This document shows positions 6,508 through 58,384 of a DNA stretch of 64,000 nucleotides, piece by piece. This DNA is from Candidatus Zhuqueibacterota bacterium (GTDB taxonomy: Bacteria; Zhuqueibacterota; Zhuqueibacteria; Thermofontimicrobiales; Thermofontimicrobiaceae), in assembly GCA_049322915.1 (NCBI GenBank), contig JBMOPW010000007.1, forward strand, positions 340,246-404,245, given 5' to 3'. Below the pieces are notes generated by a model. That model saw nothing but the letters and a program-made list of their open reading frames with translations. It had not been told where the DNA came from and ran no database searches. Both the position numbers and the translations under genes were made by a program. Numbering within the stretch: position 1 is the first letter of the stretch; the number at the start of each line of letters is the position of its first letter.

Positions 6508-6528
6508 AATACAGAAGGAGAAATAGCA

Positions 6529-15615: not shown

Positions 15616-15718
15616 CAATGCGCGAATCCAGCGAGTGCCCGATCGATGCGCTGTACATGTTTAGCTGTGTTCATTTAAGTATTGAATAAAAACAATTCCA
15701 CGTAACTTATCAGGAGTC

Positions 15719-16306: not shown

Positions 16307-16411
16307 TGAGTGCGGGTCGTTTTGCGAACCGTGTGCCGGACGTGGGGTAATCAACCGGATCGACAAATCAATATTTGCTGAATAATTTATTGAATCGCAG
16401 GAGGTTTCTGA

Positions 16412-16960: not shown

Positions 16961-17271
16961 ATTTGACCCTTAGCTTGCAGCATTATCTTGTCGTGGCGGC
17001 ATTATTGTTCTCGTTAGGGATTGTCTGCGTCCTCTCCCGGCGCAATGCTATTGGTTTGTTGATGGGGGTGGAACTCATTCTTAACTCCGCCAATATCAAT
17101 CTGATCGCTTTCGCCAATTACATCGAAAATGGCATTTCCGGCCAGGTGTTCGCCCTGTTTGTGATTGTGCTGGCTGCGGCGGAAGCGGCCATTGCCATGG
17201 CAATCGTATTGGCTATTTATCGATCTTTTAAAAATATCGATGTCGCACTGACGGTTAACTTGAAGGAGTAA
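16957..17271 (+). CDS. nuoK: NADH-quinone oxidoreductase subunit K
   Basis: RRNAIGLLMGVELILNSANIN, GQVFALFVIVLAAAEAA. Confidence 0.95.
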   Translation: MNLTLSLQHYLVVAALLFSLGIVCVLSRRNAIGLLMGVELILNSANINLIAFANYIENGISGQVFALFVIVLAAAEAAIAMAIVLAIYRSFKNIDVALTVNLKE

Positions 17272-17275
17272 ACTT

Positions 17276-19405: not shown

Positions 19406-19576
19406 CGCTCCACATTGAATCCGAAGCATGAGTGAGTTTCAGGAAGGATTCATAAAATAGTCCGGACGGAGCGTGTATGTAAGATGTGACTTCGCGAAGT
19501 GAAATTAAAACGATAATTGAAAAGCAAACCAGAAATCTATAAACGATCATTTCCGTTGTAAATTGGAGCATTTTCT

Positions 19577-21097: not shown

Positions 21098-21105
21098 GGT
21101 GAACA

Positions 21106-22593
21106 ATGCCTATCAATAAATTGCCGTTTGTCTATCCCCAACTGGTATTAACTGCCGGGATACTTGCGATTCTGCTGGTTGGACTATTCAAAACGCACTC
21201 CGAGCGGATGCGAACCGTACTGAGCGTGGTTGGCTTGATTTTCCTCGCGCTAACCGCCATTGTGTGTTTGATGAGCCCGGATTACGGCAGTCTCGGCGAC
21301 ATCTTACAATTTGATTTTTTCACAAAATTTTTCCTCCTTTTTGTCTTGCTTGCCATCACCTTGACCATGCTGGCAGCGTCGCGGTCGAATGAAATTTCTG
21401 CGCGGCGATTCCCTGAGTTCACCGCTCTGCTGTTCACCATTGGCCTGGGCATCTCGTTCATGGCGTCGGCGCAGGATGTGCTCTTCGCCTATTTGGCGAT
21501 GGAAACAGTCAGCCTGTCATCCTACATGCTGACAGGATTTAAACGCACCGACCAGTCATCGCACGAAGCAGCGTTGAAATATGTGATTTTCGGCGGGGTC
21601 GCCTCCGGCGTGATGATTTTTGGAATGTCCCTGCTCTACGGCATGGCTGGCACCACGTCTTTCAGCGGCATTGCGCAGGCTCTGTCATCCATGAATCCGA
21701 CGCTCGCCGACAACTCTATGGGAACACTGGCGATCATCATCGCGCTGGTCATGGTTTTCACCGGATTCTTTTTCAAAATTGCAGCGGTGCCTTTTCATCA
21801 GTGGTGTCCGGATGTGTATCAGGGCGCACCCACGCCGTTCACAGGCTTTCTGAGCGTGGCGCCCAAAGCCGCCGGCTTCGCCCTTATCCTGAGATTTCTG
21901 GCGCTGTTACTGCCCCAGGTCGATGTATCTGTCAAGCAGCTTTTACTGCCCATCATTGGCATCGTCTCTGCGGCAACCATGACGCTGGGAAATTTCACAG
22001 CCATTCACCAATCCAATGTGAAACGTCTGCTGGCCTATTCTTCCATTGCGCATGCCGGGTATCTGCTCATGGGCGTCGTTGTTTTGAACATCGCCGGTTC
22101 GACCGCTATTATGGTATACCTGGTCATCTATCTTTTCATGAATCTCGGCGCATTCACTGTCGTGCAGACAATCGTCGATACGTATGGCAGTGAAGAATTA
22201 TCAGCCTACCGCGGGTTGGGGAGTCGCTCGCCATTCCTGGCCATTGCCATGGGCGTGTTTCTGTTTTCACTGGCAGGCATTCCTCCACTGGCCGGGTTCA
22301 TTGGAAAATTCCTGCTATTTGCAGCCCTCATTCATAATGGTGGATTCTGGTATGTGCTGCTGGCTGTGATCGGCATTTTGAACAGCGTCATCGCGCTCTT
22401 TTACTACGCCATTATTCTGCGGGAAATGTTCCTGCGACCGGCCGAAGCAAATGCACCCGCTGCAACAAAATTGAGCCGGCTAAATTCCGGGCTCATCGCT
22501 GTCATGGGAGCAATGGTGCTGGTGCTGGGTATTTACTGGGAGCCGTTGTTGAATGCAGCGAACAAAGCGGCGACAGTGCTGGGGTTGTTGTAG
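21106..22593 (+). CDS. nuoN: NADH-quinone oxidoreductase subunit N
   Basis: EAALKY, FKIAAVPFHQWCPDVYQGAPTP, KRLLAYSSIAHAGY, SLAGIPPLAGFIGK. Confidence 0.96.
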   Translation: MPINKLPFVYPQLVLTAGILAILLVGLFKTHSERMRTVLSVVGLIFLALTAIVCLMSPDYGSLGDILQFDFFTKFFLLFVLLAITLTMLAASRSNEISARRFPEFTALLFTIGLGISFMASAQDVLFAYLAMETVSLSSYMLTGFKRTDQSSHEAALKYVIFGGVASGVMIFGMSLLYGMAGTTSFSGIAQALSSMNPTLADNSMGTLAIIIALVMVFTGFFFKIAAVPFHQWCPDVYQGAPTPFTGFLSVAPKAAGFALILRFLALLLPQVDVSVKQLLLPIIGIVSAATMTLGNFTAIHQSNVKRLLAYSSIAHAGYLLMGVVVLNIAGSTAIMVYLVIYLFMNLGAFTVVQTIVDTYGSEELSAYRGLGSRSPFLAIAMGVFLFSLAGIPPLAGFIGKFLLFAALIHNGGFWYVLLAVIGILNSVIALFYYAIILREMFLRPAEANAPAATKLSRLNSGLIAVMGAMVLVLGIYWEPLLNAANKAATVLGLL

Positions 22594-22746: not shown

Positions 22747-22777
22747 GGCAAGCGAAAACGCGCTTGCCTTTTTTTTT
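22747..22777 (+). terminator. Intrinsic terminator closing the nuo operon
   Basis: GGCAAGCG-aaaacg-CGCTTGCC followed by T9. Confidence 0.8.
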
Positions 22778-25614: not shown

Positions 25615-27312
25615 ATGTCGACCTGGACTCAGATTTACACACCGGTTTTTCATAGTTTGGCTTTATCGGCTCTTGTGGCGGCTGTGCCCGTTGTCGTCTT
25701 ACTGGGATTGCTTGCCTGGTTTCGGGTGAAAGCCCATCTGGCAGCGGTGATCGGTCTGATTAGTTCATTGTTGATCGCCCTGCTCATTTACAGAATGCCT
25801 GCGCCGCTGGCGCTCATGGCCGCTGCGAACGGCGCTGCCTATGGTCTGTTCCCCATCGGCTGGATTGTGTTGAGCGCGATTTTCATCTACGACATCACCG
25901 TGGTGACCGGCAAATTTGAAATTGTCAAAGCGTCGATTGCCCGGCTGGGCGGCGACCGCCGCGTCCAGGTGCTGTTGATCGCTTTCAGCTTTGGCGCTTT
26001 CATCGAAGGGGCGGCTGGCTTTGGTACGCCAGTGGCGATCTCCGCTGCCATGCTGATCGGGCTTGGTTTTAAACCATTGCCGGCGGCAGGACTGGCGCTG
26101 CTTGGCAATACCGCGCCGGTGGCATTCGGCGCGTTGGGGACGCCCATCATTGCGCTGTCCGCAGTCACCGGTTTGCCGGTGGAGACATTGAGCGCCGCAG
26201 TGGGGCGGCAGCTTCCTTTCTTCTCACTGATCGTCCCGTTCTGGTTGGTCTGGGCTATGGCTGGCTTTAAAAAAACACTGGAGGTATTTCCAGCGTGTTT
26301 GACAGCCGGACTGAGCTTCGCTGTGGTGCAATTTCTGGTGAGCAACTATTTCGGCCCCTGGGTGGTGGACATTGCCGGTTCGATGGTATCCATGGCGGCG
26401 ATGATTCTGCTGCTGCAATTCTGGCAACCGCGAACGATCTGGCGTTTCCCTCATGAGAGCGAAGAATCGCGGCACTCCTCACTGAATGCGCCGATTCAAA
26501 CGGCAGCGACATCAGCGACGCAATCGAATCACACGTCGCGGCGGGAAATCTTCATTGCCTGGATGCCGTGGCTGATACTATCGATATTGGTGTTTCTCTG
26601 GGGGTTACCACTCGTGAAAGAACTGCTGAACAGATGGAGCGGCATTTCAATTTTCAAATTTCCGGTGCCGCTGCTTCATCAGGCGGTGTTGCGGACAGCG
26701 CCCGTGGTGCAACACGCCAAAGCCGAGGACGCTGTTTTCACCTTGAACTGGCTGTCCGCCACCGGCACGAGCCTGCTGATCGCCGGCATCGTTTCCGGGT
26801 TGTTGCTGGGGATCAGGCCGCTGGCATTGCTGCGCATTTTCGGGAAGACGCTTCATCGGGTCAGGCTGTCCCTGTTGACTATCGCTGCCATGTTGGCGTT
26901 GAGTTTCACGACGCGGTACGCCGGTCTGGACGCGACGTTAGGCCTGGCGTTCGCCAGCAGCGGGGTGTTATTTCCCTTTTTCTCGCCGCTGCTTGGCTGG
27001 CTGGGCGTCGCTCTCACGGGCAGCGATACATCGTCCAACGTGCTGTTCGGCAATCTGCAACAGATCACGGCGCAGCAGGTGGGCATTTCGCCGGTGCTCG
27101 CCGCATCCGCCAATAGCACCGGCGGCGTGATGGGAAAAATGATCGACGCTCAAAGCATTGTCGTCGCCAGCGTGGCTACAGGCCAGGAGGGCGAAGAAGG
27201 GACCATCCTGCGCTACGTGTTTCTGCACAGCCTCGTCCTGGCAATTCTGGTCGGGATCATGATTTTGCTGCAAGCGTATGTTTTTCCGGGTATCGTCCCG
27301 GTCGTGGAATAA
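25615..27312 (+). CDS. lctP: L-lactate permease
   Basis: [58 protein letters not shown]. Confidence 0.95.
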
Positions 27313-32133: not shown

Positions 32134-32340
32134 TCAAAACCTTAATGCAGATTAGCTGCCAATGCGCCCCCTGCGCCATGGTCGCCGGCAATTCGAGCCA
32201 CAGCAGCGACAGATTAACTGATTGAGTGTGCAGCAAAAAGCGAGTCGCTCTTTGATTTAACTGGAATGGATGCTCACTTTAACGAGCTATGTATGTAATC
32301 GGTTCCTCCTGTATGTGCCAAGAAGGAGAAGGGACAAATA

Positions 32341-43099: not shown

Positions 43100-43150
43100 A
43101 AAAATTTCATGTGAAAAATTAGAAAAAAAACACTTTTTTAAATCAAGTGC

Positions 43151-43179
43151 TTGACTTCTGGGGATTTATTTGTTATATT
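43151..43179 (+). promoter_or_regulatory. Strong putative sigma70-type promoter ~810 nt upstream of rpsU
   Basis: TTGACT-N17-TATATT with TG extension and AT-rich upstream region. Confidence 0.65.
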
Positions 43180-43185
43180 AAAATT

Positions 43186-43860
43186 CGGATTTAAGAAATG
43201 AGAGGTGGATGTAGCGATTGTATCTGCCTGAAGCTATGGGGTCTGAACCGCTGTTAAAAAGAGATAATTGAAAAAGGCGTCAGGCCAATCCAGGCATAGC
43301 TCGATCAGTGCAAGGTGAATGATTGATAGCATGAGTTCGGTGTAAACCTGTGTATCCAAATGCTTCGGAGACAGAGGCGGTATGCACAGGTTTATTTGTA
43401 GCTTTCCGGTTTTTTGATCGGGACGCCGAGCGGTACGGAGGTGCGGTTGTTGTTTGAAGCTACGCCACGGATCATTTGATTCAATAATCGATTTCGAAGT
43501 CATAACATTGAGGGCGCCCTGCCGACCAGATTTGATATTGCGAAGATTCTATCGGCCTGATACCGTGACCGATTCATTCAATCCCACCTTTATTGGAATT
43601 TCGCGAATATCATTCATCTCCTGGTAAAGTGGAAAATGTCTCGGCCAAAAGTCAGATTTCGAATGAACGTACCGTGTTAAGAAAAGGAGTGTGGCATCCG
43701 AGATTTGAAAGGCGGCGACAACCAACCAAAATTTCGAGCGTGAGTTCTATCAAAGAAGTTGATACAATTACAGCGGATAGCATAAAATAAATCGATTATA
43801 GTCACGACGGGGATCCCGATGAAGGTTATGCATCCGGGTTCCGAAATACCAGCCTGAAAA
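43186..43860 (+). ncRNA. Candidate large structured ncRNA or long leader of rpsU (family unrecognised)
   Basis: No credible ORF; follows a strong promoter; several helices paired by eye (43343-43355/43382-43394, 43398-43405/43456-43463, 43534-43551/43594-43611, 43808-43843). Confidence 0.4.
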
Positions 43861-43995
43861 AGTTAGATTTTTTTCCAAAATATTTTAAATAATTATTTTA
43901 GTTTAGGAACTTTAGCTGAACGCGTGAGTATATAAACAGTCTATTCCAAATTAAAATTTCATAACAATTCACCACGAGAGAAAGGGTATGATTGA

Positions 43996-44184
43996 ATGAT
44001 AAAAGTAGTAATCGGGAGCCATGAGTCTATTGATCGAGCGATAATCCGTTTTAAAAAAAAATGCCAACAAGCGGGTATTCTGCGGGACGTCAAGAAAAAC
44101 AGTTTTTTTCTCAAGCCAAGTGAAAGAAAAAGAATGAAGCACGACAAAGCTGTGCGACGACAGTTGAGATTTCCAGATAGATAA
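43996..44184 (+). CDS. rpsU: 30S ribosomal protein bS21
   Basis: 62 aa; ESIDRAIIRFKKKCQQAGIL...FFLKPSERKR. Confidence 0.93.
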   Translation: MIKVVIGSHESIDRAIIRFKKKCQQAGILRDVKKNSFFLKPSERKRMKHDKAVRRQLRFPDR

Positions 44185-44397
44185 GCTGCATCTGTTGAGA
44201 AAAAAAGGGATGATTGAGCAAATTGGGACCTTCTTTGATAGAGGAAAAATATATTCACTACTTCAGCAACCACACATTCCATCCTATCTTATTCCTGTTA
44301 ATAATTAAGCTCAAATATTTATGTTAACAAAAAATAATTTTCTGTAAGATTTTTGAATAGTGTGTATTAAATAAAGAATGAATTTGTTGGATATGGT

Positions 44398-45255
44398 ATG
44401 GCAAAGAAGAAAAAAGTAGTAGGACCACGAACGAAACAATCTATCGAAAAGTACTTGGAAGAAATTGGAGGTTTCTCTCCATTACGACCTGAAGAAGAAA
44501 TCGATCTCGCACGTAGCATTCGTAAGGGAAATGAAGAAGCTTTGGACAAATTGGTCAAAGCGAATTTGCGGTTTGTCATTAGTGTTGCCAAAGAGTATCA
44601 GGGCCAGGGATTACCTTTGCAGGATCTCATCAGTGAAGGGAATTTGGGCCTGATCAAAGCAGCGCAACGGTTTGATGAAACGCGAGGATTCAAATTTATT
44701 TCATACGCGGTCTGGTGGATTCGGCAGTCCATTTTACAGGCATTGGCTGAACAATCGCGCGTCGTCCGTCTGCCATTGAATCGAGTGGGTGCAATCAACA
44801 AAATCGGACGGGCGCTGGAATCCCTTGAAAAGACATTTGGCCGCGAGCCAAGCATGGATGAAGTGGCTACAAAGATGGAAATGAGTGTGTACGAAGTCGC
44901 TGATGTCGTTAAAACCTCGGCGCGCCATCTCTCACTGGATGAACCATTCAAAGAAGAGGATGGCAATAGCCTTCTGGACGTCATTGAGAGCGATCGCTAT
45001 GCACCGCCCGATAATACATTAATGAGAGAATCTCTTCAGGTAGAAATTGATAAAGTACTTTCGACGCTCAAGCCGAGAGAAGCTGAAATCATCAAACTTT
45101 ACTTTGGGCTGGAGGGGGATAGGCCGTTGACGCTTGAAGAAATTGGTGAACATTTTAAATTAACCCGCGAAAGGGTTCGACAGATCAAAGAAAAAGCGTT
45201 GCGCAGACTCCGACATAGATCCCGATTAGAGCCACTCAGAAAATATCTTGGCTGA
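44398..45255 (+). CDS. rpoD: RNA polymerase sigma factor, RpoD/SigA family, short form without region 1.1
   Basis: ANLRFVISVAKEYQ, DLISEGNLGL, FDETRGFKFISYAVWWIRQSILQALAEQSR, TLEEIG...LTRERVRQIKEKA; 285 aa. Confidence 0.93.
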   Translation: MAKKKKVVGPRTKQSIEKYLEEIGGFSPLRPEEEIDLARSIRKGNEEALDKLVKANLRFVISVAKEYQGQGLPLQDLISEGNLGLIKAAQRFDETRGFKFISYAVWWIRQSILQALAEQSRVVRLPLNRVGAINKIGRALESLEKTFGREPSMDEVATKMEMSVYEVADVVKTSARHLSLDEPFKEEDGNSLLDVIESDRYAPPDNTLMRESLQVEIDKVLSTLKPREAEIIKLYFGLEGDRPLTLEEIGEHFKLTRERVRQIKEKALRRLRHRSRLEPLRKYLG

Positions 45256-45522: not shown

Positions 45523-48500
45523 TTGTATCGATTCTTTAACATGAGCCATGTGCCTGCTCTGTGTTTCCTGATCGTTGGAGTCTTTGCACTACCTGTTTCC
45601 GCCAGTGATGTCCAGACGCTCTCATCGTCTCATGAAGAAATCATATTTGAATTCCGGCCGCAAGGGTGGAGCACTGATCAGAAAATCGTGAACGGATCAG
45701 CGTATTTTCATCTCCGGTTTGATAATAGCTCTTGTGATACAAAACCGGGCGAACCACTTCTGCCCGAACGCGTCCTGCTATTTGCCGTACCACCCAATGC
45801 CTCGGTAACCATGGACGTGGTGGCAGCCGAATCCGGCGAGCAACTCAGGGGCAAACCATTGCCAACGCCAGCCTATCCCCGTGACGGTCTGGGAAAATTG
45901 GTCTATTCAGAAAATGAAGAGTTCTATCGCAAAGCAGCCGCGTTTCCCGAAGAACTGGTGAGTGTGTCCCCGGTTGCGTCGCTTCGGTACCAGCACGTTG
46001 TCATCGTTCGAATCTCTCCGGTTCAGTTCTTTCCTGACAAAGGATATATTCAGTTGTACCAGCGCATCGTTGTTCGGCTGCGATTTAATGGCGGGGAGAA
46101 TGTCACAAACTCCTCCCATTCAATCGGGACTGATGCTTTTTATTCCAACCTATTCGTCAATCCCGAACAGGCCCACGCCTGGCGGCTATTGAAACGACCA
46201 GTCCATTCGGTGAAAAAATCAAGTCGTCCCGGAGACTGTTCCCGGTGGATCAAAATTTTTATTCGGGATGAAGGCATGTACAAACTCACCGGCGCGGATC
46301 TGGAGAATGCCGGCATTGTGCTCAGTCAAATTCAACCGGGCGATCTGCAGCTATTCAACAACGGCGGAGTTCAAACGCCTGTCTCGTTGAGGGATGCGCG
46401 CCCTGACAGCTTAATGGAGAATGCAATCTTTGTTTCTGATGGGAATGACGGGCGATTCGACGATAATGATTACGTGTACTTCTATGGCAAATCGGTCAAT
46501 AACTGGAAATGGGACGCATCCCGAAAAAAGTATGTTCACTATCTGCATCGGCATACGAATGAAAATGTGTACTGGCTGACCTGGCAGGGTTCGCAGGCTG
46601 GCAAGAGAATGGTGCAGTTGGATCAGGGGCAATCTCCGGATGCGATCCCTGTGACTGGATTTCTCGATTACATCTATGTCGAACATGAATATAAAAATTT
46701 ATTGAATTCCGGAGTGCATTGGCTGGGCAATTATTTCAGCAATTCCATGCTGCAACGTAACTACCAGTTAAATCTGGAGGGAGCGATTCCTTCTCAGAAG
46801 GCATGGCTGCGCGTCCAGCTTGTGGGGGTTTCCCAGGGGAAGCAATCATTTCAGCTCTACATGAATGAAAATTTTATCGGCAAAGTGCCTGAGTTTTATG
46901 CCAGCAGCGGACAGACCATCAGCATGCGTGCCAAAGAATATAGCGCCGCAGTGAATGCCGGCGTGCTGGACGGATATAACACCCTGACTGTGGAATATAC
47001 TCCTTACACGGAAACCGCCCTGGCCTACATGGACTGGATCGAGCTTTCTTTCTCCCGCAGATTGAAGGCTCAAAATGATGAACTTTATTTTTATAGTCCG
47101 GATTCAATCGGGACCTTTTCATATCACATGGCTGGATTCTCAACGGATGAGGTGGAAGTCTTCGACGTCACCCGATTCAACGACGTTGCGAGAATAACAG
47201 GATTGGCCAGGCAGGATGACCAATTGGCATTTGTCGACACAACGCTCTCGGCAGTACCAAAGCGGTTCATTGCCCTCAGCCGTGAGAAATTCAAATCGCC
47301 GGAAAAAATCGAGCGCGAGATGGGCTCATGGCTGAGGAATCCGGCGAATGGCGCTGATTTCATCATCATCGCCCATGATGATTTTTTTGACGCTGCGTTA
47401 GGGTTGAAGAGCCTGAGGGAGAATTGCGACACTCTGAATACAGAAGTCGTTAAGATTTCGGACATCTATGACGAATTTTCCTGGGGGCTGCCGGATGCAG
47501 TGGCCATTCGGGATTTCATTCACTACGCCTATTTCAATTGGGCCATTCGCCCGGACTATATCCTCCTGTTCGGCGATGGCGATTACGACTATAAAAATAT
47601 CATTTCACCGAACGATCCCAACCGGATTCCGCCTTTTGAGACGGATGACTGGAATGAGGGATCCAGTCGGCCGCGAGACGATTGGTTTGTCTGCGTGGAT
47701 GGCAATGATAATCTGTTGGATTTAGCCATCGGCAGAATTCCGGTACAGAATCCGGATGAAGCGTACAAAGTTGTTGAGAAGATCGTCAACTATGAAACAC
47801 ATCCGGCAGTGGGGGATTGGTGCAACTCGATCACCATGGTCGCTGACGATGAATTCGAAAGCGCCGGCGATTACGACAGCATTGACCATATCCCTGACGC
47901 AGAAGCCATTGCGGAGCACTATATCCCTGAGTCGTATCAGGTGTCGAAAATTTATCTGACTGAGTATCCTGCAGTTCGCGATGCAGCGACATCCGGCATT
48001 CGTAAACCGGCTGCACAACAGGCGCTCATCGAGCAGGTGAATCGGGGAAATTTGATTGTGAATTTTATCGGTCATGGCAATGAACGCGTCTGGGCGCACG
48101 AGAACGTGCTCAATATTTCCGATGACCTTCCCCGCATAGCCAATGGACAGAAGCAGGCTTTTTGGATCGCTGCCACCTGTGATTTCGGGCGTTTCGACAA
48201 CCCGGCGCTGCAATGCTTTGCCGAGCAATTGGTGACCCTCAGCGGTCGCGGAGCCATCGCGGTGTTCAGCGCCAGCCGGCTGGCAAATCCGGACGCCAAT
48301 GTCAATTTGAACAAGTTAGTCTACAACCACCTTTTCAAAGCGCCCTATTCGAGCGTCCGTCTCGGCGATGTCGTGGCTGCGGCGAAAAACGCGAGCGGGA
48401 ATAATGAGAACGACCAATTTTACCACCTGTTGGGCGATCCGACACTTCGGTTGATGAGACCATCGTGCCTGGCTCATCTCACAGAGATTGCACCGGATTC

Positions 48501-49506
48501 GATCAAAGCGCTCTGCACCATGAAAATTTCCGGTGATGTTGCGTTGCTGAATCAGCCTGCCGATGAACTGAATGGCACTATTTTGCTGAAAGCCTTTGAT
48601 TCGGAAAAAGACCGCGTGTATACCATTCAGGGCTCACGGCAATATCATTATAAATTGCCTGGCAGCACTATCTTCAGGGGAGAGGTGTCCGTTGCGCGCA
48701 ACCAGTATAGCTCGCAGTTCATCATTCCCAAGGATATCACCTACGGTGGAACAGAAGGCCGGGTGAGTGTGTTTTATTATGACGAGGCCAGATTCGGCGC
48801 CGGGTATCGCGATGGACTCCCGGTCGGCGGTACGGAAATGAATTTCACCGATACCGAGGGGCCGCACATTCAGATTCAGGTCGAAGGCCAAAATTTCATG
48901 GACGGCGGATTCATGGAGCCGAATGCCATGCTGAAAATTATTGTGGCCGATGAAAAAAGCGGCGTGAACATCGTCGGCGATATCGGCCACAAAATCACCC
49001 TTACTTTCGACAATGATGAGCATACCAGGATTGATGTGACCGAATATTTTCAGTACGATGTGAATAGCTATCTTTCGGGAACCATCCGCTATTCCCTGGT
49101 AAGTATGGACCAGGGTAAGCATCTCATGTGCATTAAGGCATGGGACAATTTCAATAACTCCGCCACCTGCGAGGCTGAGTTCACTGTCGTGGCTACGGAT
49201 GAACTGGTGCTGCGCGATGTATTGAATTATCCCAATCCATTTTCGACGCACACTGTATTTACGTTCTGGGTCAATCAGCCGTGCCAAGCGCAGATAAAAA
49301 TTTTCACCATCGCCGGTCGTCTGGTGCGGGCGCTGGAAAATGTATTTGCCGAAACCGGTTTCAATCAAATTAGCTGGGATGGCCGCGACGCGGATGGCGA
49401 TTTATTGGCCAATGGCATTTATCTTTATAAATTAGAAACAACGCATCAGCAGGGAAGCCAGTCCCTTTCAGCGACGAAAATTGATCGGTGCGTGGTTCTG
49501 CGCTGA
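45523..49506 (+). CDS. porU: Type IX secretion sortase PorU-like C25 peptidase (paralogue 1)
   Basis: Signal peptide, C25 propeptide-like N-terminus, LLFGDGDYDYKN, AIGRIPV, catalytic NFIGHG and ATCDFG, LLGDP, AWDNFNNS, CTD VLNYPNPF...WDGRD...ANGIYLY. Confidence 0.88.
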   Translation: MYRFFNMSHVPALCFLIVGVFALPVSASDVQTLSSSHEEIIFEFRPQGWSTDQKIVNGSAYFHLRFDNSSCDTKPGEPLLPERVLLFAVPPNASVTMDVVAAESGEQLRGKPLPTPAYPRDGLGKLVYSENEEFYRKAAAFPEELVSVSPVASLRYQHVVIVRISPVQFFPDKGYIQLYQRIVVRLRFNGGENVTNSSHSIGTDAFYSNLFVNPEQAHAWRLLKRPVHSVKKSSRPGDCSRWIKIFIRDEGMYKLTGADLENAGIVLSQIQPGDLQLFNNGGVQTPVSLRDARPDSLMENAIFVSDGNDGRFDDNDYVYFYGKSVNNWKWDASRKKYVHYLHRHTNENVYWLTWQGSQAGKRMVQLDQGQSPDAIPVTGFLDYIYVEHEYKNLLNSGVHWLGNYFSNSMLQRNYQLNLEGAIPSQKAWLRVQLVGVSQGKQSFQLYMNENFIGKVPEFYASSGQTISMRAKEYSAAVNAGVLDGYNTLTVEYTPYTETALAYMDWIELSFSRRLKAQNDELYFYSPDSIGTFSYHMAGFSTDEVEVFDVTRFNDVARITGLARQDDQLAFVDTTLSAVPKRFIALSREKFKSPEKIEREMGSWLRNPANGADFIIIAHDDFFDAALGLKSLRENCDTLNTEVVKISDIYDEFSWGLPDAVAIRDFIHYAYFNWAIRPDYILLFGDGDYDYKNIISPNDPNRIPPFETDDWNEGSSRPRDDWFVCVDGNDNLLDLAIGRIPVQNPDEAYKVVEKIVNYETHPAVGDWCNSITMVADDEFESAGDYDSIDHIPDAEAIAEHYIPESYQVSKIYLTEYPAVRDAATSGIRKPAAQQALIEQVNRGNLIVNFIGHGNERVWAHENVLNISDDLPRIANGQKQAFWIAATCDFGRFDNPALQCFAEQLVTLSGRGAIAVFSASRLANPDANVNLNKLVYNHLFKAPYSSVRLGDVVAAAKNASGNNENDQFYHLLGDPTLRLMRPSCLAHLTEIAPDSIKALCTMKISGDVALLNQPADELNGTILLKAFDSEKDRVYTIQGSRQYHYKLPGSTIFRGEVSVARNQYSSQFIIPKDITYGGTEGRVSVFYYDEARFGAGYRDGLPVGGTEMNFTDTEGPHIQIQVEGQNFMDGGFMEPNAMLKIIVADEKSGVNIVGDIGHKITLTFDNDEHTRIDVTEYFQYDVNSYLSGTIRYSLVSMDQGKHLMCIKAWDNFNNSATCEAEFTVVATDELVLRDVLNYPNPFSTHTVFTFWVNQPCQAQIKIFTIAGRLVRALENVFAETGFNQISWDGRDADGDLLANGIYLYKLETTHQQGSQSLSATKIDRCVVLR

Positions 49507-49761: not shown

Positions 49762-52700
49762 ATGAAAATTAACTCGTCAATCAGGTGGTTTTTCATTGTC
49801 AGCCTTCTGGTATCATTGCAGGTAGGAAACCTTGCGGCAGCGCTGGCGCACGATGGATTGGAAGTCATTTCTTCGGATGACCAGGGAGTAACGCTGCGAT
49901 ACACCCCGCGCGTGGAGCGGATTGATACCGTTCGTGTGAACAATGAAACCTATTTAAAAATATATGTCGCTCAGGCGTCGCTGTTCGGCGATGCCGGTCA
50001 ACCCATGGTCTCCAAACGGCTGATCAAAGTCGGCGTGCCGTTGCAATCGGAACCCACGGCGCAGACGCTGCAAGCGGAATTTGAGACGATTTCGGGCCGG
50101 TTGCTGCCCGCGCCAACGATTGAAAAAAATGGTGTTTTTCTACATGAGCCGGATCGCGATGCCTATAGCGCAGCGACCGATTTTCCCCTGGATGTTATCG
50201 AATTGATGCCGCCCGGATTCATTCGGGACCAGCGCGTGGCGGAGATTCAGGTTCACCCCATTCAGGCGGTGGGCGCGAAGAACCAGATTAAAATTTATAA
50301 AAGCATCGTTATCCGTATGGATTTCAATGGCAGCGGGGGACAGTCTGGCGTCTCGAAGCAGTCATTGCCGGACGAAGAATTCTTTCGCGGGGTGGTTGTC
50401 AATTTCGACCAATCGGAAAAATGGCAGAAGCCGCGCCCCCAAAAATCAGTGCGGAAGGCGTCAGGGTTACAGATGGGCGAAGCGTTGAAAATTACCATCC
50501 GTGAAGAAGGCCTGTACAAGATAACCGGCAAAGACCTGCAATCGGCTGGCGTGGATATCAGCGCGATCAACTCCGGCTCGTTGCGCCTTTTCAATAACGG
50601 CGGTAGGGAACTCTCCCAAAGCATTACCGCGCAGCGCCCCGATTCGCTCACGGAGATGGCTATCCGCGTATTCGACGGCGGCGATGGTGCATTCAATACA
50701 TCGGATTATCTCGTGTTTTACGGTCAATCCGTGAACGGCTGGGAGCCATTGAGCGAAACGAGTCCCTACTATAAGCATTACATTCATCATTACACTGAAG
50801 ACAATATCTATTTTTTAACCTGGGACGGAACACGTGCCGGCAGGCGAATGGCGAGCCGCATCTCGCAATCAGATCCGATGTTGACGCCAACGACGTATAC
50901 GTTGGGCATTTACTACAAAGAAGATGAAATCAACAATTATCTCGATTCCGGCACCTATTGGTTTGGCCGGCTGATGGCTGGCAACAGCGATGAGCAGGGT
51001 TACAGCGCCTACCTGCCCCATGCGCGAACCAGTCAGAATTCCATGTTTTTTCGATTTCAGTTTCACACCCTCACCTATAACATCCATCAATTCAATGTGC
51101 TGCTCAATGACCAACTGGTGGACATCATCACCGTCAACGGCACCAGGCTCTATACCGAAACGGTTTCTAAAATTCTGTCCCTTTCGGCGTCAGGCTACAA
51201 CAGTCTGAAAATTCAATATCACGGCGACACATCGGAAAGTCAGGCGTATATCGACTGGTTCGAAATTCAGTATCAGACCGGGTTCGTGGCCGAAGACAAT
51301 GCCCTGTTGTTTCATCAGGTCGATGATGGCGCATCAAAATACCGAATCACCAATTTCACCAGCAACCTGATTGAAGTGTACGACGTGACCGATGCCGGCG
51401 ATGTTCAGTACATTTCCAATCCCGAAATCGCTTCCGGGACAGTGACGTTTGTGGATGATGCCGTCGGATTCCCGCGACGCCGGTTTTGGGCGACAACGAC
51501 CAGCGCCTATGCCACTCCTGAAAGTTTTGAGCGCATTCAATTCGCCAATTTGCGGGCGCAACTGGCCGGCGCTGAATTCATCATCATCGCCCACGATGAT
51601 TTCTACGACGCAGCAATGATGCTGAAATCGCATCGGGAAAACACGGACAGCATTTCCACCTCGGTTGTCCGCATCGCCGATATTTATAATGAATTCTCCG
51701 GAGGGCTGCTGGACCCTGTAGCCATTCGGGATTTCATCAAATTTGCATTTGACAATTGGGTCATTGCACCGAAATATGTCTTGCTGTTTGGAGACGGCGA
51801 TTTTGATTATAAAAATATCAAAAGCGATCTCGATAAAAACTGGATCCCGCCGTTCGAGACATCGGAGTTGAACGAGAATTCCAGCCGAGCCATGGATGAA
51901 TGGTTCATTTTAGTGAGCGGCGATGATGCGGATGGCGATCTGGCCATTGGCCGATTCCCGGTGCAAACCGCTGATGAGGCGCGGTTCGTGGTGGAAAAAA
52001 TTATTCAGTATGAAACCGAATCTGTGCTGAAGACGGAAGGTGACGTGCTGCTCGAAGATTGGCGGAATGTCATCACAATGGTCGGGGACGACGAATACCA
52101 CGATCCCGGCAGCCAGAACGAGACCATGCATACTCGCGATGCTGAATACATCATGGAAAATGCCATTCCGAACTATTTTAATAAAGTAAAAATTTACCTG
52201 ATCGAATACCCCGCCATTCAGAATCCGGCTATTTCAGGCTACATGAAACCCGCAGCGACAGACGCGTTGCTGAAGCGGATCAATGATGGCACGCTCATTT
52301 TAAATTTTGTCGGCCACGGCGCGCCGTCGATTTGGGCGGATGAGCGCGTGCTGCTCGAGAGTCGCGATCTGGATAAAATTTTGAATTACGACAAAGCCCC
52401 GTTCTGGGTGGCTGCGACATGCGATTTTGGCCGGTTCGATGATCCCATGGAGCAGGGCATGGCTGAAAAACTCTTCGTCGCTCAGCGGCGTGGAGGAATT
52501 GCATTCCTGACTTCCTCGCGCCTGGCGTACGCTACAGATAACACGGCCTTGAATCGACAATTTTTCAATCAGCTTTTTAACGGTGAAACCCCCTCCGCGC
52601 GGCTGGGTGTTGCGCTGATACAGGCCAAGATAAATAACTACAGCACCACCAACGACCAGAAGTATAATCTCTATGGCGATCCCACCATGCGATTGAAAGG

Positions 52701-53796
52701 ACCAGCCAATCGGGCGCGAATTGCTACTGTTCGACCGGACTCGCTCAAGGCTCTGAGTGAAATTAATATTTCCGGGGAAGTGATTCAGAATTCAGGCCTC
52801 ACCAGTCCATTCAATGGCAAGGCCGTCCTGAAGGTTTTCGATTCAAAAAAGAATATGATCTACACAACAAAGTACGGCTCGCAGATTCGCTACGCGGCGC
52901 CGGGGCGAATTTTGTTCCGAGGATTGATTCCGATTCAACAGGGCGATTTTGATGCAACGTGCATCATTCCCAAAGATATTACCTACGGCGGAGAGATGGG
53001 CAGAATCAGCCTATATTTTGCCGATGAAAATAATGAAGGCGTCACATCGAAAGATTCGCTCTACGTGGGCGGAACGTCGATTCTGCAGGATGGGGAAGGG
53101 CCCATTATCAAGATTGGTTTTGTGGGACAGAATTTTGCAGATGGCAATTTGATTTCATCCGATGCGGTCTTGCAGGTGGACATTGCCGATAGCATCAGCG
53201 GGGTGAATATTGCCGGCGACATTGGACACGATATCACCCTGACAATCGATGACCAGGAAACCGATAAAATTGTTCTGACAGATTTATTCAATTATTACGA
53301 GGGAAATTTTAAGGCTGGGAAAATCCTGTACGATTTTTCCACGTATAATTCGACCGCGGCGGAAGGGACCAGTTCGGAAGAGTCAGCCAGCGGTTTAACG
53401 CCGGGGGATCATCGAATTACTATCAAGGCCTGGGATAATTTCAATAACTCCGCCATCGCCACGTGCTTTGTCTCGGTTGTCTTCAGCGACGAATTGAAGC
53501 TGAAAAATGTGCTCAACTTTCCCAATCCGTTTCGCTCTTCCACCACATTCACCTTCGTGGTGAATTTACCCTGCCGGGCGAAAATCAAGATTTTCACCAT
53601 TGACGGACAGCTGATCCAAACAGTGGAACATTTGACCGGCGCGGCTGGACTGAACCAGGTTTACTGGGATGGCAGAGATCGGGATAACGACGTGCTGGCC
53701 AATGGCGTTTATCTTTATCAGGTGACTGTTACAACGACCGAGGCTGGCAAATCGATGCAGGATGAATTCATCGGAAAGCTTGTCATCATGAGATAA
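49762..53796 (+). CDS. porU: Type IX secretion sortase PorU-like C25 peptidase (paralogue 2)
   Basis: Same architecture; NFVGHG and ATCDFG catalytic motifs; CTD VLNFPNPF...WDGRD...IGKLVIMR. Confidence 0.88.
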   Translation: MKINSSIRWFFIVSLLVSLQVGNLAAALAHDGLEVISSDDQGVTLRYTPRVERIDTVRVNNETYLKIYVAQASLFGDAGQPMVSKRLIKVGVPLQSEPTAQTLQAEFETISGRLLPAPTIEKNGVFLHEPDRDAYSAATDFPLDVIELMPPGFIRDQRVAEIQVHPIQAVGAKNQIKIYKSIVIRMDFNGSGGQSGVSKQSLPDEEFFRGVVVNFDQSEKWQKPRPQKSVRKASGLQMGEALKITIREEGLYKITGKDLQSAGVDISAINSGSLRLFNNGGRELSQSITAQRPDSLTEMAIRVFDGGDGAFNTSDYLVFYGQSVNGWEPLSETSPYYKHYIHHYTEDNIYFLTWDGTRAGRRMASRISQSDPMLTPTTYTLGIYYKEDEINNYLDSGTYWFGRLMAGNSDEQGYSAYLPHARTSQNSMFFRFQFHTLTYNIHQFNVLLNDQLVDIITVNGTRLYTETVSKILSLSASGYNSLKIQYHGDTSESQAYIDWFEIQYQTGFVAEDNALLFHQVDDGASKYRITNFTSNLIEVYDVTDAGDVQYISNPEIASGTVTFVDDAVGFPRRRFWATTTSAYATPESFERIQFANLRAQLAGAEFIIIAHDDFYDAAMMLKSHRENTDSISTSVVRIADIYNEFSGGLLDPVAIRDFIKFAFDNWVIAPKYVLLFGDGDFDYKNIKSDLDKNWIPPFETSELNENSSRAMDEWFILVSGDDADGDLAIGRFPVQTADEARFVVEKIIQYETESVLKTEGDVLLEDWRNVITMVGDDEYHDPGSQNETMHTRDAEYIMENAIPNYFNKVKIYLIEYPAIQNPAISGYMKPAATDALLKRINDGTLILNFVGHGAPSIWADERVLLESRDLDKILNYDKAPFWVAATCDFGRFDDPMEQGMAEKLFVAQRRGGIAFLTSSRLAYATDNTALNRQFFNQLFNGETPSARLGVALIQAKINNYSTTNDQKYNLYGDPTMRLKGPANRARIATVRPDSLKALSEINISGEVIQNSGLTSPFNGKAVLKVFDSKKNMIYTTKYGSQIRYAAPGRILFRGLIPIQQGDFDATCIIPKDITYGGEMGRISLYFADENNEGVTSKDSLYVGGTSILQDGEGPIIKIGFVGQNFADGNLISSDAVLQVDIADSISGVNIAGDIGHDITLTIDDQETDKIVLTDLFNYYEGNFKAGKILYDFSTYNSTAAEGTSSEESASGLTPGDHRITIKAWDNFNNSAIATCFVSVVFSDELKLKNVLNFPNPFRSSTTFTFVVNLPCRAKIKIFTIDGQLIQTVEHLTGAAGLNQVYWDGRDRDNDVLANGVYLYQVTVTTTEAGKSMQDEFIGKLVIMR

Positions 53797-53827
53797 TAAA
53801 AAAGGGTTCTCCGGGCGGAGAACCCTA
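53797..53827 (-). terminator. Intrinsic terminator with its U-tract on the minus strand (may also end the porU2 transcript)
   Basis: AGGGTTCTCC-gggc-GGAGAACCCT with A6 immediately left on the plus strand. Confidence 0.8.
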
Positions 53828-53952
53828 AATCATATTGCGGAACAGCTAATTCGGGTCAAATGCGCTGTTTAGGTTGGATTTTTTTAAGCTCGGCACCTCC
53901 TGTAATTAATGGTATTACATTTAAATGCCAAAGGATCCACAACGAGATGACA
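53797..53952 (-). ncRNA. Candidate sigma54-dependent small RNA (~155 nt)
   Basis: Bounded by a consensus -24/-12 promoter and an intrinsic terminator; two internal stem-loops; no ORF with a properly spaced start. Confidence 0.6.
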
Positions 53953-53963
53953 CAGAGGCAACC

Positions 53964-53979
53964 GCAAAATACATGCCAG
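53964..53979 (-). promoter_or_regulatory. sigma54 promoter of the candidate sRNA
   Basis: Minus strand CTGGCATG-TATT-TTGC (GG-N10-GC). Confidence 0.7.
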
Positions 53980-54134
53980 TGCCTGATAAAAAATGAGCGA
54001 GTGGTGACAAAGCCATAATCTTCAAGTTTTCAGAAACATGGGAATGATAATTCACCGGGAAAAATTGTCGCATCGTCAGAGAATTTTCCTTTAAATTGTT
54101 TCAACGCAGAACATTGTCTTATCGTGATACATCT

Positions 54135-55568
54135 ATGAACGATCAACCGAATCAAATCAGACGAAACGATATTATTGAATTGGACATCGAGTCCCTGGCA
54201 TTCAAGGGCAAAGGAGTAGCGCATCTGGATGGATTTACTATATTTGTTGAGAGAGGAATACCGCGCCAAAAAGTGAAAGCCCGGGTGGTCAAGAAAAAAT
54301 CCAATTATGCCGAGGCCTACGCTTTTGAGGTGGTCAATCATTCGCCGCTGGAAGTTGCACCGCGATGCCGTTATTTCGGGTCCTGCGGCGGCTGTCTGTT
54401 GCAGAATCTGAATTATGGCGAGCAATTGATTCAGAAGCGGCAGCAGGTGAAAGAACTGCTGGAGCACATCGGCGGATTCCAAAATGTGGAGATTCTGCCC
54501 ACGATGCCCTCGCCGGATACCTATTTCTACCGCAACAAAATGGAGTTTACCTTTTCCAATTTCCGCTGGCTGCTCCCGGATGAAATAGACGCAGGGCTGA
54601 TGGTTGACCGGGATTTTGCGCTTGGCTTGCACGTTCCAAACTCATTCACCAAAGTGATCGATATCAAAGAATGCTTTCTGCTTTCCGAAAGGAGCAATAT
54701 TGTTTTCGAGGCGATTCGGAAATTTGCTGCGGCGAGTTCTTTCGCGCCGTACACCACCAAAGACCATTCCGGTTTCTGGCGCTTTGTGGTGATCCGCGAA
54801 TCCAAAACGTTGGGACAGATGATGGTGAATCTTGTGACCGCGCAGGACGCCAAAGGTGAGGGAAAGGTGCAGGAACTGAGCCGCTTGCTGATCGAGCAGT
54901 TTCCTTTTATCACTACATGCGTTCATAATGTCAGCCGAAAGAAAGCCCAGATTGCGTTTGGCGACCATGAAAATACCCTCTTCGGTCCGGGCTACATCGA
55001 AGAAGTGTTAGCGCAGACGCGATATCGCATTTCAGCCAACTCGTTTTTTCAGACCAACACCTTGCAAGCGGAGGCCATGTACCGGCTCATTCGGGAGTGG
55101 GGCGCTTTCGAAAAAAATGATATTGTATACGATTTATATTCCGGCGCCGGGGGAATTGCCCTTTTCATTGCGCCGCTTGTCGGGCGTGTGGTCGGATTCG
55201 AACTGGTGCAGCAAGCCATCGCAGACGCCGAAGTCAATTGCCGGCTCAATGCTATAGACAACTGCAATTTTGTTGAAGGCGATCTCAAAGATCAAATCGC
55301 CAATCCGCCTGAAATCATAGAAAAATGTGGTCAGCCGTCGATTGTGATTATCGATCCGCCTCGATCCGGCTTGCATCCAAAACTGCCGGAGCGGATTCTT
55401 CAGCTTCGGCCGGAGCGCATTCTGTACGTCTCCTGCGACCCTTCCACACTGGCGCGGGATTTGAAACTGCTCTGCGCATCAGACTTCTCACCTGTGAAGG
55501 TGCAGCCAGTAGACATGTTCCCCAATACGGCTCACTGCGAGACTGTCGTACTGCTTGAAAAGAAGTGA
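54135..55568 (+). CDS. rlmD: 23S rRNA (uracil-C5)-methyltransferase RlmD/TrmA family
   Basis: TRAM domain, CRYFGSCGGC, YRNKMEF, SFFQTN, DLYSGAGGI, IDPPRSG, YVSCDPSTLARD, VDMFPNTAHCE. Confidence 0.93.
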   Translation: MNDQPNQIRRNDIIELDIESLAFKGKGVAHLDGFTIFVERGIPRQKVKARVVKKKSNYAEAYAFEVVNHSPLEVAPRCRYFGSCGGCLLQNLNYGEQLIQKRQQVKELLEHIGGFQNVEILPTMPSPDTYFYRNKMEFTFSNFRWLLPDEIDAGLMVDRDFALGLHVPNSFTKVIDIKECFLLSERSNIVFEAIRKFAAASSFAPYTTKDHSGFWRFVVIRESKTLGQMMVNLVTAQDAKGEGKVQELSRLLIEQFPFITTCVHNVSRKKAQIAFGDHENTLFGPGYIEEVLAQTRYRISANSFFQTNTLQAEAMYRLIREWGAFEKNDIVYDLYSGAGGIALFIAPLVGRVVGFELVQQAIADAEVNCRLNAIDNCNFVEGDLKDQIANPPEIIEKCGQPSIVIIDPPRSGLHPKLPERILQLRPERILYVSCDPSTLARDLKLLCASDFSPVKVQPVDMFPNTAHCETVVLLEKK

Positions 55569-55782: not shown

Positions 55783-58170
55783 TTAGGGCGCCACGTTCAA
55801 TTTCTGCTGTTGAGTTCGTTTCTCAAATGCCAAATCCAGCACATCGCTCATCTTTTCTAAAAAATGAAATTTCATTTCTCGACGAATTTGTTCGGGTATT
55901 TCAATCAAATCTTTCTCGTTTTGAGCGGGCAGAAACACGGTTCTGATCCCGGCCCGATGCGCTGCGAGCACCTTTTCTTTGATCCCGCCAACAGGCAGTA
56001 CCGAGCCTCTCAGGGTAATTTCGCCGGTCATCGCCACGTCGCTGCGGACGTATTGCCCGGTCAATAGTGAAAGCAACGATGAGAACAGCGTAATCCCCGC
56101 TGACGGCCCATCTTTGGGGATGGCGCCAGCCGGGATGTGAATGTGAATATCGTATTTTTCATGGAAATCCTTCTCGACATTCAGTTCATCCGCTTTGGAG
56201 CGAATGTACGACAAGGCCGCCTGAGCAGATTCCTTCATCACATCGCCCAATTGACCGGTCAGACTGAGTTGTCCTTTGCCGCGCATTTTTGTGGATTCGA
56301 AGAACAGAATATCACCGCCAACCGGCGTCCACGCCAGGCCGATGGCAATGCCGGTTTCATTGATCCGCTCAGCCGATTCCTGGAAGAATTTTTTCGGTCC
56401 CAGATATTCGGTCAGTTTTTTCTCGGTGATGCGAGTCTTCTTTGCATGACTTATGTTCTTTGACATCGCCACATCCTTGGCAACACCGCGGCAGACTCCG
56501 GCAATTTGCCGCTCCAGATTTCGCACCCCGGCTTCCCGTGTGTACGAGTTGATCATCAGTTTGATAGACGACTCCGGGATAGTAATCAGTTTATTAGTCA
56601 ATCCGTGTTCGGTAATTTGCTTGGGAACCAGAAAATTCCGCGCAATTTGAACTTTATCCTCTTCCACGTAGCTGGGAATTTCGATGATTTCCATGCGATC
56701 TTTGAGCGCCGGCGGAATCGGCTCTGACATGTTGGCAGTGGCGATGAACAGCACTTTGGACAGGTCAAACGCTACTTCCAGATAATGATCGCTGAATGAG
56801 AAATTCTGCTCCGGGTCCAGTACCTCCAGCAGCGCGGATGATGGATCCCCGCGGAAGTCGTGTCCCAATTTATCGATTTCATCCAGCATGAAGACCGGAT
56901 TGTTAGATCCCGCCTTTTTGATACCCTGAATGATACGGCCGGGAAGCGCTCCGATATACGTCCGACGATGGCCGCGCATTTCTGCCTCGTCATGAATCCC
57001 GCCCAGCGACATGCGAACGAAATTTCGCCCCATGGCTTCGGCGATGGAGCGGCCCAGCGAGGTTTTGCCGACGCCAGGAGGGCCGACGAAACAGAGGATC
57101 GGCCCTTTCATATCCGGCTTCAATTTGCGTACAGCCAGATATTCCAGAATTCGCTTTTTGACCTTCTCCAGATTATAATGGTCGGCGTCCAATTTCTTCT
57201 GAACACGTTTGATATCAAGGTTGTCTTTTGTCGAAATCGACCAGGGCAGTTCCATCAACCAGTCCAGGTACGTCCGGGATACAGTGTACTCGGCTGACGA
57301 AGGATGCATTTGCGCTAACCGATCCAGTTCCTTCTCCGCGACCTTTTGGGCCTCTTTCGGCATTTTGGCCTTCTTGATTTTCTGTTTCAGTTCATGTATT
57401 TCTGATGTGTCAGAATCATCGCCCAGTTCCTTTTGAATCGTCTTCAACTGCTCGCGCAGATACAATTCCCGTTGCGTCTTCCCAATTTTTGTCTGAATAT
57501 CGGACTGAATTTTCTCGCCCAGTTCCAGCGTTTGCAGCTTCTTATTAATGAGCAGATTGGCCTTATTCAATCGCTCCATAACGTTAAGCGTGCTGAGAAC
57601 ATCCTGCTTGTCCTTGATGGCGACACTGGAAAATGCAATGATCATATCCGCCAACATCCCGGGTTCCTTGATATTGGAAACCATGACCAGTTGTTCATAC
57701 GTAATCTCAGTCGATAATTCGACCATGCGTTTGAAAATTTTTCGCAGGTTGGTTGTCAGCGCCTCAACCTGAGCCGTGTCTTCAATGACCTGTTCATTGA
57801 TTGGCTCGAAAATAGCTTTGAAGAAGGGAGCTTCCTGGGTGAACGTGATCAGTTTGATGCGATACAATCCCTGAATCAAAATGGTTTTGCTCCCGTCCGG
57901 CATATCGATGGTGCGGTGAATTTTGGCGGCAGTGCCGATGAAATAGAGATCTTCAGTGGTTGGATTTTCAATGGTTGATTTTTTCTGGGCCAGAATTGCA
58001 ATGATGTCATCATCCTTGCCTGTTTCTCCGACCAGCTTGAGCGATTTTTCACGGGCTACTGTAATCGGTAAAAGCTGTTGAGGAAAAAGGACTTCATTTC
58101 GAAGCGGTATCACCGGCAGCACCGTGGGTATTCTTGAAAAGAATTCTCGTTTAAATTCACTCATTGTCAT
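55783..58170 (-). CDS. lon: ATP-dependent protease La (LonA)
   Basis: LON_substr_bdg N-terminus, Walker [23 protein letters not shown], catalytic PKDGPSAG and GGIKEK. Confidence 0.97.
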
Positions 58171-58369
58171 TTTCCTGTATTTATGGTGAAAGAATCCCGC
58201 AGCATGAATCGCGTGAGACTCCGATAATCGTGATTTAAAAGTCGATCATTAAACAGTGTCGATTCAGTCAATTGCTTTTAGCACATCCCGACATCAGTCC
58301 AGTGAGTTGTTAATCTCCAATTCCACCTTCCAGGGTCGGGTTCATCTGATTTTACAAAAGTGTCTGTAC

Positions 58370-58384
58370 GCAAAATATATGCCA
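58370..58384 (-). promoter_or_regulatory. sigma54 promoter upstream of lon
   Basis: Minus strand TGGCATA-TATT-TTGC (GG-N10-GC), ~200 nt before the start codon. Confidence 0.7.

Follow-up and report, generated by a model that had tools for sequence, protein, structure and literature searches.

A candidate sigma-54-type small RNA gene in the gap between a porU-like gene and rlmD of a bacterium related to candidate division KSB1

Does the short gap between a porU-like gene and rlmD in an uncultured bacterium related to the Fibrobacteres–Chlorobi–Bacteroidetes (FCB) group hold an RNA gene of its own? We examined this question in 64,000 nucleotides (nt) of DNA from Candidatus Zhuqueibacterota bacterium (GenBank assembly GCA_049322915.1, contig JBMOPW010000007.1, positions 340,246 to 404,245, forward strand), hereafter called the window, in whose numbering all coordinates are given. 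The gap spans 338 bp (53797–54134) and holds a candidate RNA gene that a preliminary description, drawn up from the letters and the open reading frames (ORFs) of the window, had presented as a complete sigma-54-dependent small-RNA transcription unit on the minus strand. All of the sequence features named there, namely the promoter, the terminator, an AGGAGG and the minus-strand orientation, were found at the positions given for them; with promoter-like and terminator sequences both present, the complete transcription unit is a reasonable model, in which transcription itself is a prediction. A conserved non-coding element is very probably present in the gap, and this element is probably a minus-strand RNA with its own terminator. 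We give an even chance to the proposal that the RNA is sigma-54-driven, and the case for an independent minus-strand gene encoding a non-coding RNA of ~150 nt in the porU-like/rlmD gap is likewise finely balanced.

The predicted RNA is ~156 nt long and extends on the minus strand from its inferred start to the end of its U-tract (53797–53953). At its 3′ end stands an intrinsic terminator (53797–53826, minus strand), composed of a 10-bp hairpin (53826–53803) followed by T6 (53802–53797), for which a terminator scan reports 10 pairs (6 G-C), a 4-nt loop and the tail TTTTTTATTAT. The plus strand continues after the hairpin with TAAATCATATT, which is not a T-tract, whereas the minus strand carries the T6; as proposed earlier, the terminator faces the minus strand, on which no protein gene ends here. 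Four scans of the window listed 88 terminator-like sites, compared with ~72.5 expected from shuffles, and only six of the 88 combine at least 8 pairs with at least 5 G-C pairs. Three of these six lie just 3′ of a gene on the same strand, namely nuoN (22747, plus), a GGDEF gene (32371, minus) and lon (55695, minus), and two fall inside ORFs and have interrupted T-tails (18336 and 60223). The sixth is that of the candidate RNA, which ranks best within the 40–60 kb part of the window. The canonical terminators of this genome face the transcript that they end, and this one faces the minus strand, where there is no protein-gene end. A separate terminator-like hairpin on the minus strand (26275–26296; 8 pairs followed by T7) lies antisense within a lactate permease ORF (25615–27312, plus strand).

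As a substitute for the DNA of relatives, an arbitrary plus-strand ORF covering the RNA body (53860–54015) was searched against an exhaustive protein library. One match, the 57-amino-acid (aa) entry P0122, aligned without gaps to the translated window at 53800–53949, with 36 of 50 residues identical. The identical stretch ENPKSYCGTANSGQMRCLGWIFLSSAPP spans the ATG of the window and enters the terminator hairpin. P0122 therefore appears to be a gene-caller product on the non-coding copy of a relative, because identity crosses the ATG while the C-terminal parts and the stop codons differ. The second match of the same search, P0121, was discarded as a 1639-aa low-complexity repeat without an aligned stretch.

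Forced substitutions were counted as the minimum per codon between P0122 and the window, a measure to which synonymous changes are invisible and which draws on one relative. By this count, RNA nt 1–51 (53902–53952) carry at least 18 forced substitutions in 51 positions, nt 52–135 (53818–53901; strand unassigned) carry none in 84, and nt 136–153 (53800–53817) carry three in 18, two of them in the 4-nt terminator loop and one at the outermost pair. In the conserved core 28 codons in a row are unchanged, out of 51 of which 15 are changed, and none of 1,000,000 permutations reached a run of this length. The relative also retains a Lys-Lys-Lys run beside the hairpin, which, as judged from the codons, would preserve an A-rich plus strand and hence a U-tract on the minus strand. 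Both Pro codons over the AGGAGG are retained, so that at least NGGNGG is kept. Judged from these sequences, the conserved functional part most likely comprises the AGGAGG, the 3′ arm of stem-loop P2, the adjoining linker, stem-loop P3 and the terminator, with the 5′ third of the RNA varying between relatives.

Excess folding energy at the locus is specific to one strand. The whole RNA folds on the minus strand at -50.6 kcal/mol (z-score -5.7; 0 of 200 shuffles as good), compared with a z-score of -2.0 for the same region on the plus strand. When the terminator is left out, the body retains a z-score of -2.7 on the minus strand (2 of 300 shuffles as good) and has one of +0.44 on the plus strand (201 of 300 as good). 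The minimum free energy (MFE) structure contains 49 pairs, 8 of them G-U, in a three-way arrangement closed by helix P1 (nt 10–17 with nt 112–119). According to the MFE structure and the pair probabilities, it comprises stem-loop P2 with its apical hairpin P2b (53889–53932, minus strand; P2, nt 21–30/55–64; P2b, nt 34–39/47–52), a 20-nt A/C-rich linker (nt 65–84; 53869–53888, minus strand) with an unpaired probability of ~0.99, and stem-loop P3 (nt 85–111; 53842–53868, minus strand), built of two stacked 5-bp helices with pair probabilities of 0.83–1.0. Both the linker and P3 lie inside the conserved core. The structure paired by eye in the preliminary description was recovered in part: the inner stems of its stem-loop 1, its stem-loop 2 and the terminator recur in the MFE structure, but its UGGAU/AUCCA helix has a probability of ~0, and the full structure scores -40.5 kcal/mol against -50.6 kcal/mol for the MFE. 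The AGGAGG (53896–53901, minus strand; CCTCCT on the plus strand) occupies the 5′ edge of the conserved core, and it had been described as lacking a start codon at Shine-Dalgarno (SD) spacing. This is correct, as the sole start codon nearby, a GUG, overlaps it and leaves no spacing.

The wider sigma-54 consensus is TGGCAC-N5-TTGC. Upstream of the predicted RNA, a promoter candidate of the -24/-12 type (53964–53979, minus strand; C-TGGCAT-GTATT-TTGC) agrees with 9 of 10 specified consensus positions, and the near-consensus element claimed at 53979–53964 is thus present in the sequence. One report gives the RpoN promoter as -24/-12 GG-N10-TGC (PMC8657755); in TGGCATGTATTTTGC (53978–53964, minus strand) the GG-N10-GC register is exact. 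With the C of GC set at -12, +1 would fall at 53952/53953, a position derived from the promoter register alone. The stricter pattern TGGCAY-N5-TTGC occurs three times in the window, once inside an ORF (220, plus strand) and twice in intergenic DNA, both on the minus strand. The two intergenic sites, found in ~10.06 kb, compare with 0.029 expected (P for two or more = 0.00055; 20,000 shuffles). Loci of other genomes, 840 kb in all, contain this pattern five times.

The second intergenic site, TGGCATATATTTTGCG (58369–58384, minus strand), lies ~200 nt upstream of the ATG of lon. Its agreement with the promoter site of the RNA, at 15 of 16 positions, extends to the unconstrained spacer, and as a sister sigma-54-type sequence it supports the sigma-54 reading of the preliminary description. 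The lon leader itself, ~188 nt within 58171–58384 (minus strand), shows no excess structure (z-score +0.39). Sigma-54 control of the Lon protease would be unusual, and a promoter type common to lon and the RNA would point towards a response to stress or a proteostasis response under sigma-54 control. A weaker sigma-54-like site elsewhere, TGGCAGCTAATCTGC (32147–32161, minus strand; 8/10, with GG and GC in register), stands immediately upstream of the start of an M1 peptidase gene at 32133, too near for a normal leader, and is possibly due to chance.

Use of sigma-54 by the organism is very probable, because the window encodes an NtrC-type activator with a GAFTGA motif. The ORF in question (2790–4118) matches Sigma54_activat with E = 1.7e-71 and carries GAFTGA at residue 221 together with a Walker A-like motif. 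It belongs to a plus-strand group (892–4731) that encodes a histidine kinase (HAMP-PAS-HisKA), the NtrC-type activator and a STAS-domain protein, and that lies directly upstream of an ExbB-ExbD-ExbD-TonB cluster (4767–7263). In the gaps of this region, no sigma-54-type site was found that reaches 8 of 10 matches.

A number of observations weigh against a sigma-54-driven RNA gene on the minus strand, and several of them concern the promoter. With up to one mismatch allowed, the promoter pattern occurs six times in the whole window against an expectation of 5.47, and it appears at least six times in 47 of 100 shuffles; moreover, the intergenic P value of 0.00055 is generous, because Y was admitted after the sites had been seen. 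A sigma-54 enhancer site is usually an inverted repeat 80–150 bp upstream. No enhancer-like inverted repeat was found in 53960–54140, and the promoter regions of the RNA and of lon have no common upstream motif beyond the 16-mer core, in scans that could miss the binding site of the activator. The sole activator gene seen lies 50 kb from the candidate promoter, with none adjacent, and the ORFs scanned in the window include no RpoN (Sigma54 factor domain), which 64 kb could hardly be expected to show. At the other side of the predicted start, at least five of the first six transcribed nucleotides are changed in the relative, and P0122 ends at the equivalent of 53953–53955, just short of the promoter. 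Sequence conservation by itself does not assign a strand, and the plus-strand end of the core is the anti-SD-like CCTCCT.

The paired architecture is also only partly retained. With the nucleotide sequence of the relative inferred parsimoniously from P0122, 37 of the 49 MFE pairs are unchanged, two are changed yet pairable (2–124, and 36–50 from U-A to U-G) and 10 are broken. The broken pairs comprise three of the outer 5′ helix, 10–119 and 14–115 of P1, 24–61 of P2, three in P2b and the outermost terminator pair; the partners of 24–61 and 127–150 sit at unseen third codon positions. P2 keeps nine of its 10 pairs, with 24–61 altered on the 5′ side, whereas in P2b three of six pairs are broken and one passes from U-A to U-G. 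No change touches P3 or the nine inner terminator pairs. With 10 of 49 pairs broken and none showing visible two-sided compensation, P1 and P2b lack support, and the single-sequence model of the 5′ third of the RNA is not supported. Conservation in relatives, to which the preliminary description had looked, thus extends in one relative to the 84-nt core and the terminator stem and not to the 5′ stems, including the apical hairpin of stem-loop 1.

Direct comparison with other genomes added little to this picture. An RlmD alignment of 50 KSB1-like proteins was used for a profile search of genome contigs, from which 80 loci of FCB and Desulfobacterota were taken; among the matches listed, the best of these RlmD loci reached 54% identity. 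In the two closest loci listed, another gene closely precedes rlmD and the porU-rlmD gap is absent. Against all 80 loci, which lack synteny, the intergenic region gave at best a 30-nt blastn match (E = 0.019) and no nhmmer match. A covariance model built from the single sequence and run on the window and the 80 loci found itself (198 bits) and two further matches at E = 1.8 and 5.1. As no close relative is among them, the empty result in these loci says nothing on conservation.

Target predictions gave no help either. Among the 42 start regions of the window, the best run of complementarity to the RNA is 8 nt, which 250 of 500 shuffles reach, and duplex energies in the window are equalled by 43 of 100 shuffles, in unrestricted duplex folding that is not meaningful. 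No gene for Hfq, for another RNA chaperone or for CsrA was seen among the window ORFs scanned, a span of 64 kb that could hardly show hfq.

The RNA could be a true minus-strand small RNA that is not driven by sigma-54 and that is made from a different promoter or processed out of a longer transcript, with TGGCAT-N5-TTGC fortuitous or serving otherwise. This would fit a conserved block that begins 51 nt downstream of the predicted start, beyond a stretch that varies at 18 or more of its 51 nt, as well as the lack of an enhancer-like element and the chance frequency of the pattern over the whole window. We nevertheless consider it rather unlikely. A weak sigma-70-like site at 54071–54044 (minus strand) would suit this reading, but it matches at 9 of 12 positions in a region whose shuffles give 2.3 such sites, and no sigma-70-like site was scored between 53953 and 53902. 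The Bacteroidetes-type promoter TAnnTTTG, tried for the T-rich -12 region, was rejected, being absent at the locus and not enriched in intergenic DNA (3 compared with 6.7 expected). The agreement of the two 16-mers at 15 of 16 positions, spacer included, also speaks against a fortuitous element. A role on the plus strand is unlikely as well. The region would then be the 3′ untranslated region of the porU-like gene or a long rlmD leader, with CCTCCT acting as an anti-SD-like sequence and the hairpin as a terminator, perhaps bidirectional, of the porU-like gene. Conservation is silent on strand, the hairpin begins 7 nt past the porU-like stop codon, and the rlmD-lon junction also has one hairpin between convergent genes; rlmD, moreover, must be served by a promoter or by read-through, and from 53830 to rlmD no terminator of the plus strand intervenes. 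However, what comes after the hairpin on the plus strand is TAAATCATATT and not a T-tract like the T6 of the minus strand, the plus-strand body folds no better than most of its shuffles (z-score +0.44; 201 of 300), and the rlmD start has no SD that an anti-SD could mask. The inferred change at pair 36–50 points the same way, as it turns the pair into U-G in a minus-strand RNA but into an A-C mismatch in a plus-strand one, in a single pair of an otherwise disrupted helix.

It is quite unlikely that there is no RNA gene at all, in which case the hairpin would merely terminate or stabilise the porU-like mRNA, the promoter would be due to chance and the conserved block would act at the level of DNA, for instance as a site for an rlmD regulator, or would be a product of patchy recombination. 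A single relative, known through a translated ORF, and a 5′ structure that is not conserved are compatible with this explanation, but 84 contiguous nucleotides without a forced change far exceed the length of a protein-binding site, the terminator stem is kept while its loop varies, and both the orientation of the T-tract and the strand-specific excess of folding energy also speak against it. Finally, the plus-strand ORF at 53860–54018 (52 aa) might be a real small protein gene, as the match of P0122 to the translated frame at 36 of 50 residues could suggest. This is highly improbable, given that identity is equal through the 14 codons upstream of the ATG, over the terminator hairpin, a stretch that offers no start codon in the window, and that the C-terminal parts differ, with stop codons 20 codons apart. 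Nor does the ORF have an SD before its ATG or a Pfam match, and word-based searches with it were empty.

If the locus is a sigma-54-driven RNA gene of the minus strand, its expression and action may be pictured as follows. Sigma-54 RNA polymerase would bind the -24/-12 element at 53978–53964 and would start near 53952 only with an active enhancer-binding ATPase. Transcription would stop at the hairpin and U-tract at 53826–53797, an element seen as sequence and conserved in one relative. The conserved 3′ two-thirds of the RNA would form the functional core, and the RNA would most likely act in trans, base-pairing through the unpaired conserved linker, with the terminator U-tail and an A-tract as possible chaperone-binding sites. 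The linker (nt 65–84) is a candidate seed or protein-binding stretch, given its modelled unpaired probability of ~0.99 and its place within the core that lacks forced change in one relative.

Sponges of the CsrB/RsmZ type expose numerous GGA motifs, either in hairpin loops or in single-stranded stretches. The RNA contains three GGA motifs, two of which are fully paired and one of which lies half in a 2-nt bulge. With only three such motifs and none in a hairpin loop, a CsrA-type sponge is argued against, and the earlier suggestion that the AGGAGG binds a GGA-recognising protein is weak on the same grounds.

Small RNAs that depend on RpoN are an established class in Proteobacteria and Campylobacterota. 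CrcZ, CrcY and CrcX of Pseudomonas and Azotobacter are RpoN-dependent and CbrB-activated, with CrcZ reaching ~400 nt; Qrr1–5 of Vibrio, ~100 nt long, depend on sigma-54 with LuxO and are Hfq-dependent base-pairing RNAs; GlmY of Enterobacteria depends on sigma-54 with GlrR and is a protein decoy for RapZ; and GlnZ is a further RpoN-dependent small RNA. Published reports describe CrcZ and CrcY as transcribed from RpoN-dependent promoters and as sequestering Hfq/Crc (PMC8657755), and place NrsZ of Pseudomonas aeruginosa and CJnc230 of Campylobacter jejuni among small RNAs under NtrC/RpoN or RpoN control (PMC4253122, PMC11187230). As predicted from its sequence, the candidate resembles CrcZ, CrcY and CrcX as a stand-alone non-coding RNA gene with a -24/-12 promoter, its own terminator and an A-rich unpaired stretch. 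It differs from them in having no Rfam match, a single A7 tract instead of several A-rich motifs, no adjacent activator, a length of ~156 nt and a KSB1 host. Its predicted general layout is that of Qrr1–5 (compare PMC3730234), with a sigma-54 promoter, a short, structured body in which a conserved seed is left unpaired, and an intrinsic terminator with a U-tail, but it lacks an Rfam Qrr match, paralogues in the window and a luxO-like neighbour. It would be like GlmY (compare PMC7073468) in being a small RNA of the sigma-54 type, and the way in which GlmY acts, through protein binding and not through base-pairing, offers an alternative mode of action for the candidate; unlike GlmY, it has no Rfam match, and no GlmZ-like homologue or RapZ context was seen. 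NrsZ and CJnc230 illustrate how widespread such RNAs are; they belong to other phyla, and no similarity of sequence or model between them and the candidate was detected.

To our knowledge, hardly any regulatory RNAs are known from beyond the cultured model phyla. Literature searches that fell short of most subscription journals found nothing linking KSB1 with sigma-54 and, with the same coverage, nothing related on sigma-54-dependent small RNAs in Bacteroidetes. The locus thus offers a candidate new RNA family of a kind already known in Proteobacteria, and the gain would be one of breadth and not of principle, because such elements are well known there. An RNA gene with a conserved core would provide a handle, in the form of a covariance model, a probe or a reporter construct, on post-transcriptional control in an uncultured FCB-related lineage. 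More tentatively, the RNA could be the founding member of a new family and the first regulatory RNA candidate described for KSB1, belonging to a small regulon that includes Lon and is activated by sigma-54 with an enhancer-binding protein, and carrying an A/C-rich seed beside an SD-like AGGAGG.

At the gathering score, Rfam 15 gave no matches in the whole window, and in 53600–54300 at E ≤ 10 it gave one unrelated match (E = 9.7) inside rlmD; hence the check named in the preliminary description, a comparison with the Rfam covariance models, left the candidate without a known family. The window contains no tRNA or tmRNA gene and no second copy of the RNA, and plasmid and phage collections contain nothing similar to it. 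For the two small ORFs of the gap, word-based protein searches returned no candidates and Pfam no match. A further stretch of ~900 bp (43100–43995) contains five small ORFs without a Pfam match, and the Rfam gathering scan was empty there.

The gap is flanked on its 5′ side by a gene for a PorU-like protein of 1344 aa (49762–53796, plus strand), in which Pfam recognises Peptidase_C25 (E = 9.1e-89), a C25 propeptide and FlgD_ig. On the other side lies an RlmD-type methyltransferase gene (~54135–55568, plus strand), whose true start is probably near 54135, because its twin in the database is 477 aa long. It is followed by lon (55783–58170, minus strand; Lon by Pfam). In a protein search the closest named RlmD homologues belong to candidate division KSB1, with a top identity of 87%, which bears out the KSB1-like/FCB lineage that had been assigned to the DNA. 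The RlmD homologues P0002–P0014 of this search are 64–87% identical.

The PorU-like gene at the gap is the second of two tandem C25 peptidase paralogues, of 1327 aa (45523–49506, plus strand) and 1344 aa (49762–53796, plus strand). In both, a C25 propeptide is accompanied by a FlgD_ig domain at the C terminus; the first also shows a weak match to Por_Secre_tail (E = 0.00076) that falls short of the Pfam cut-off. The region before them (43996–45255, plus strand) encodes rpsU (S21) and then a short sigma-70-family factor of 285 aa with regions 1.2, 2, 3 and 4. Elsewhere in the window, a complex I operon (11609–22593, plus strand) comprises nuoA, B, C, D, H, I, J, K, L, M and N. Between nuoD (13104–14237) and nuoH (14383–15615) there is no nuoE, F or G, which makes it of the 11-subunit type, and the operon closes with a strong terminator at 22747–22768.

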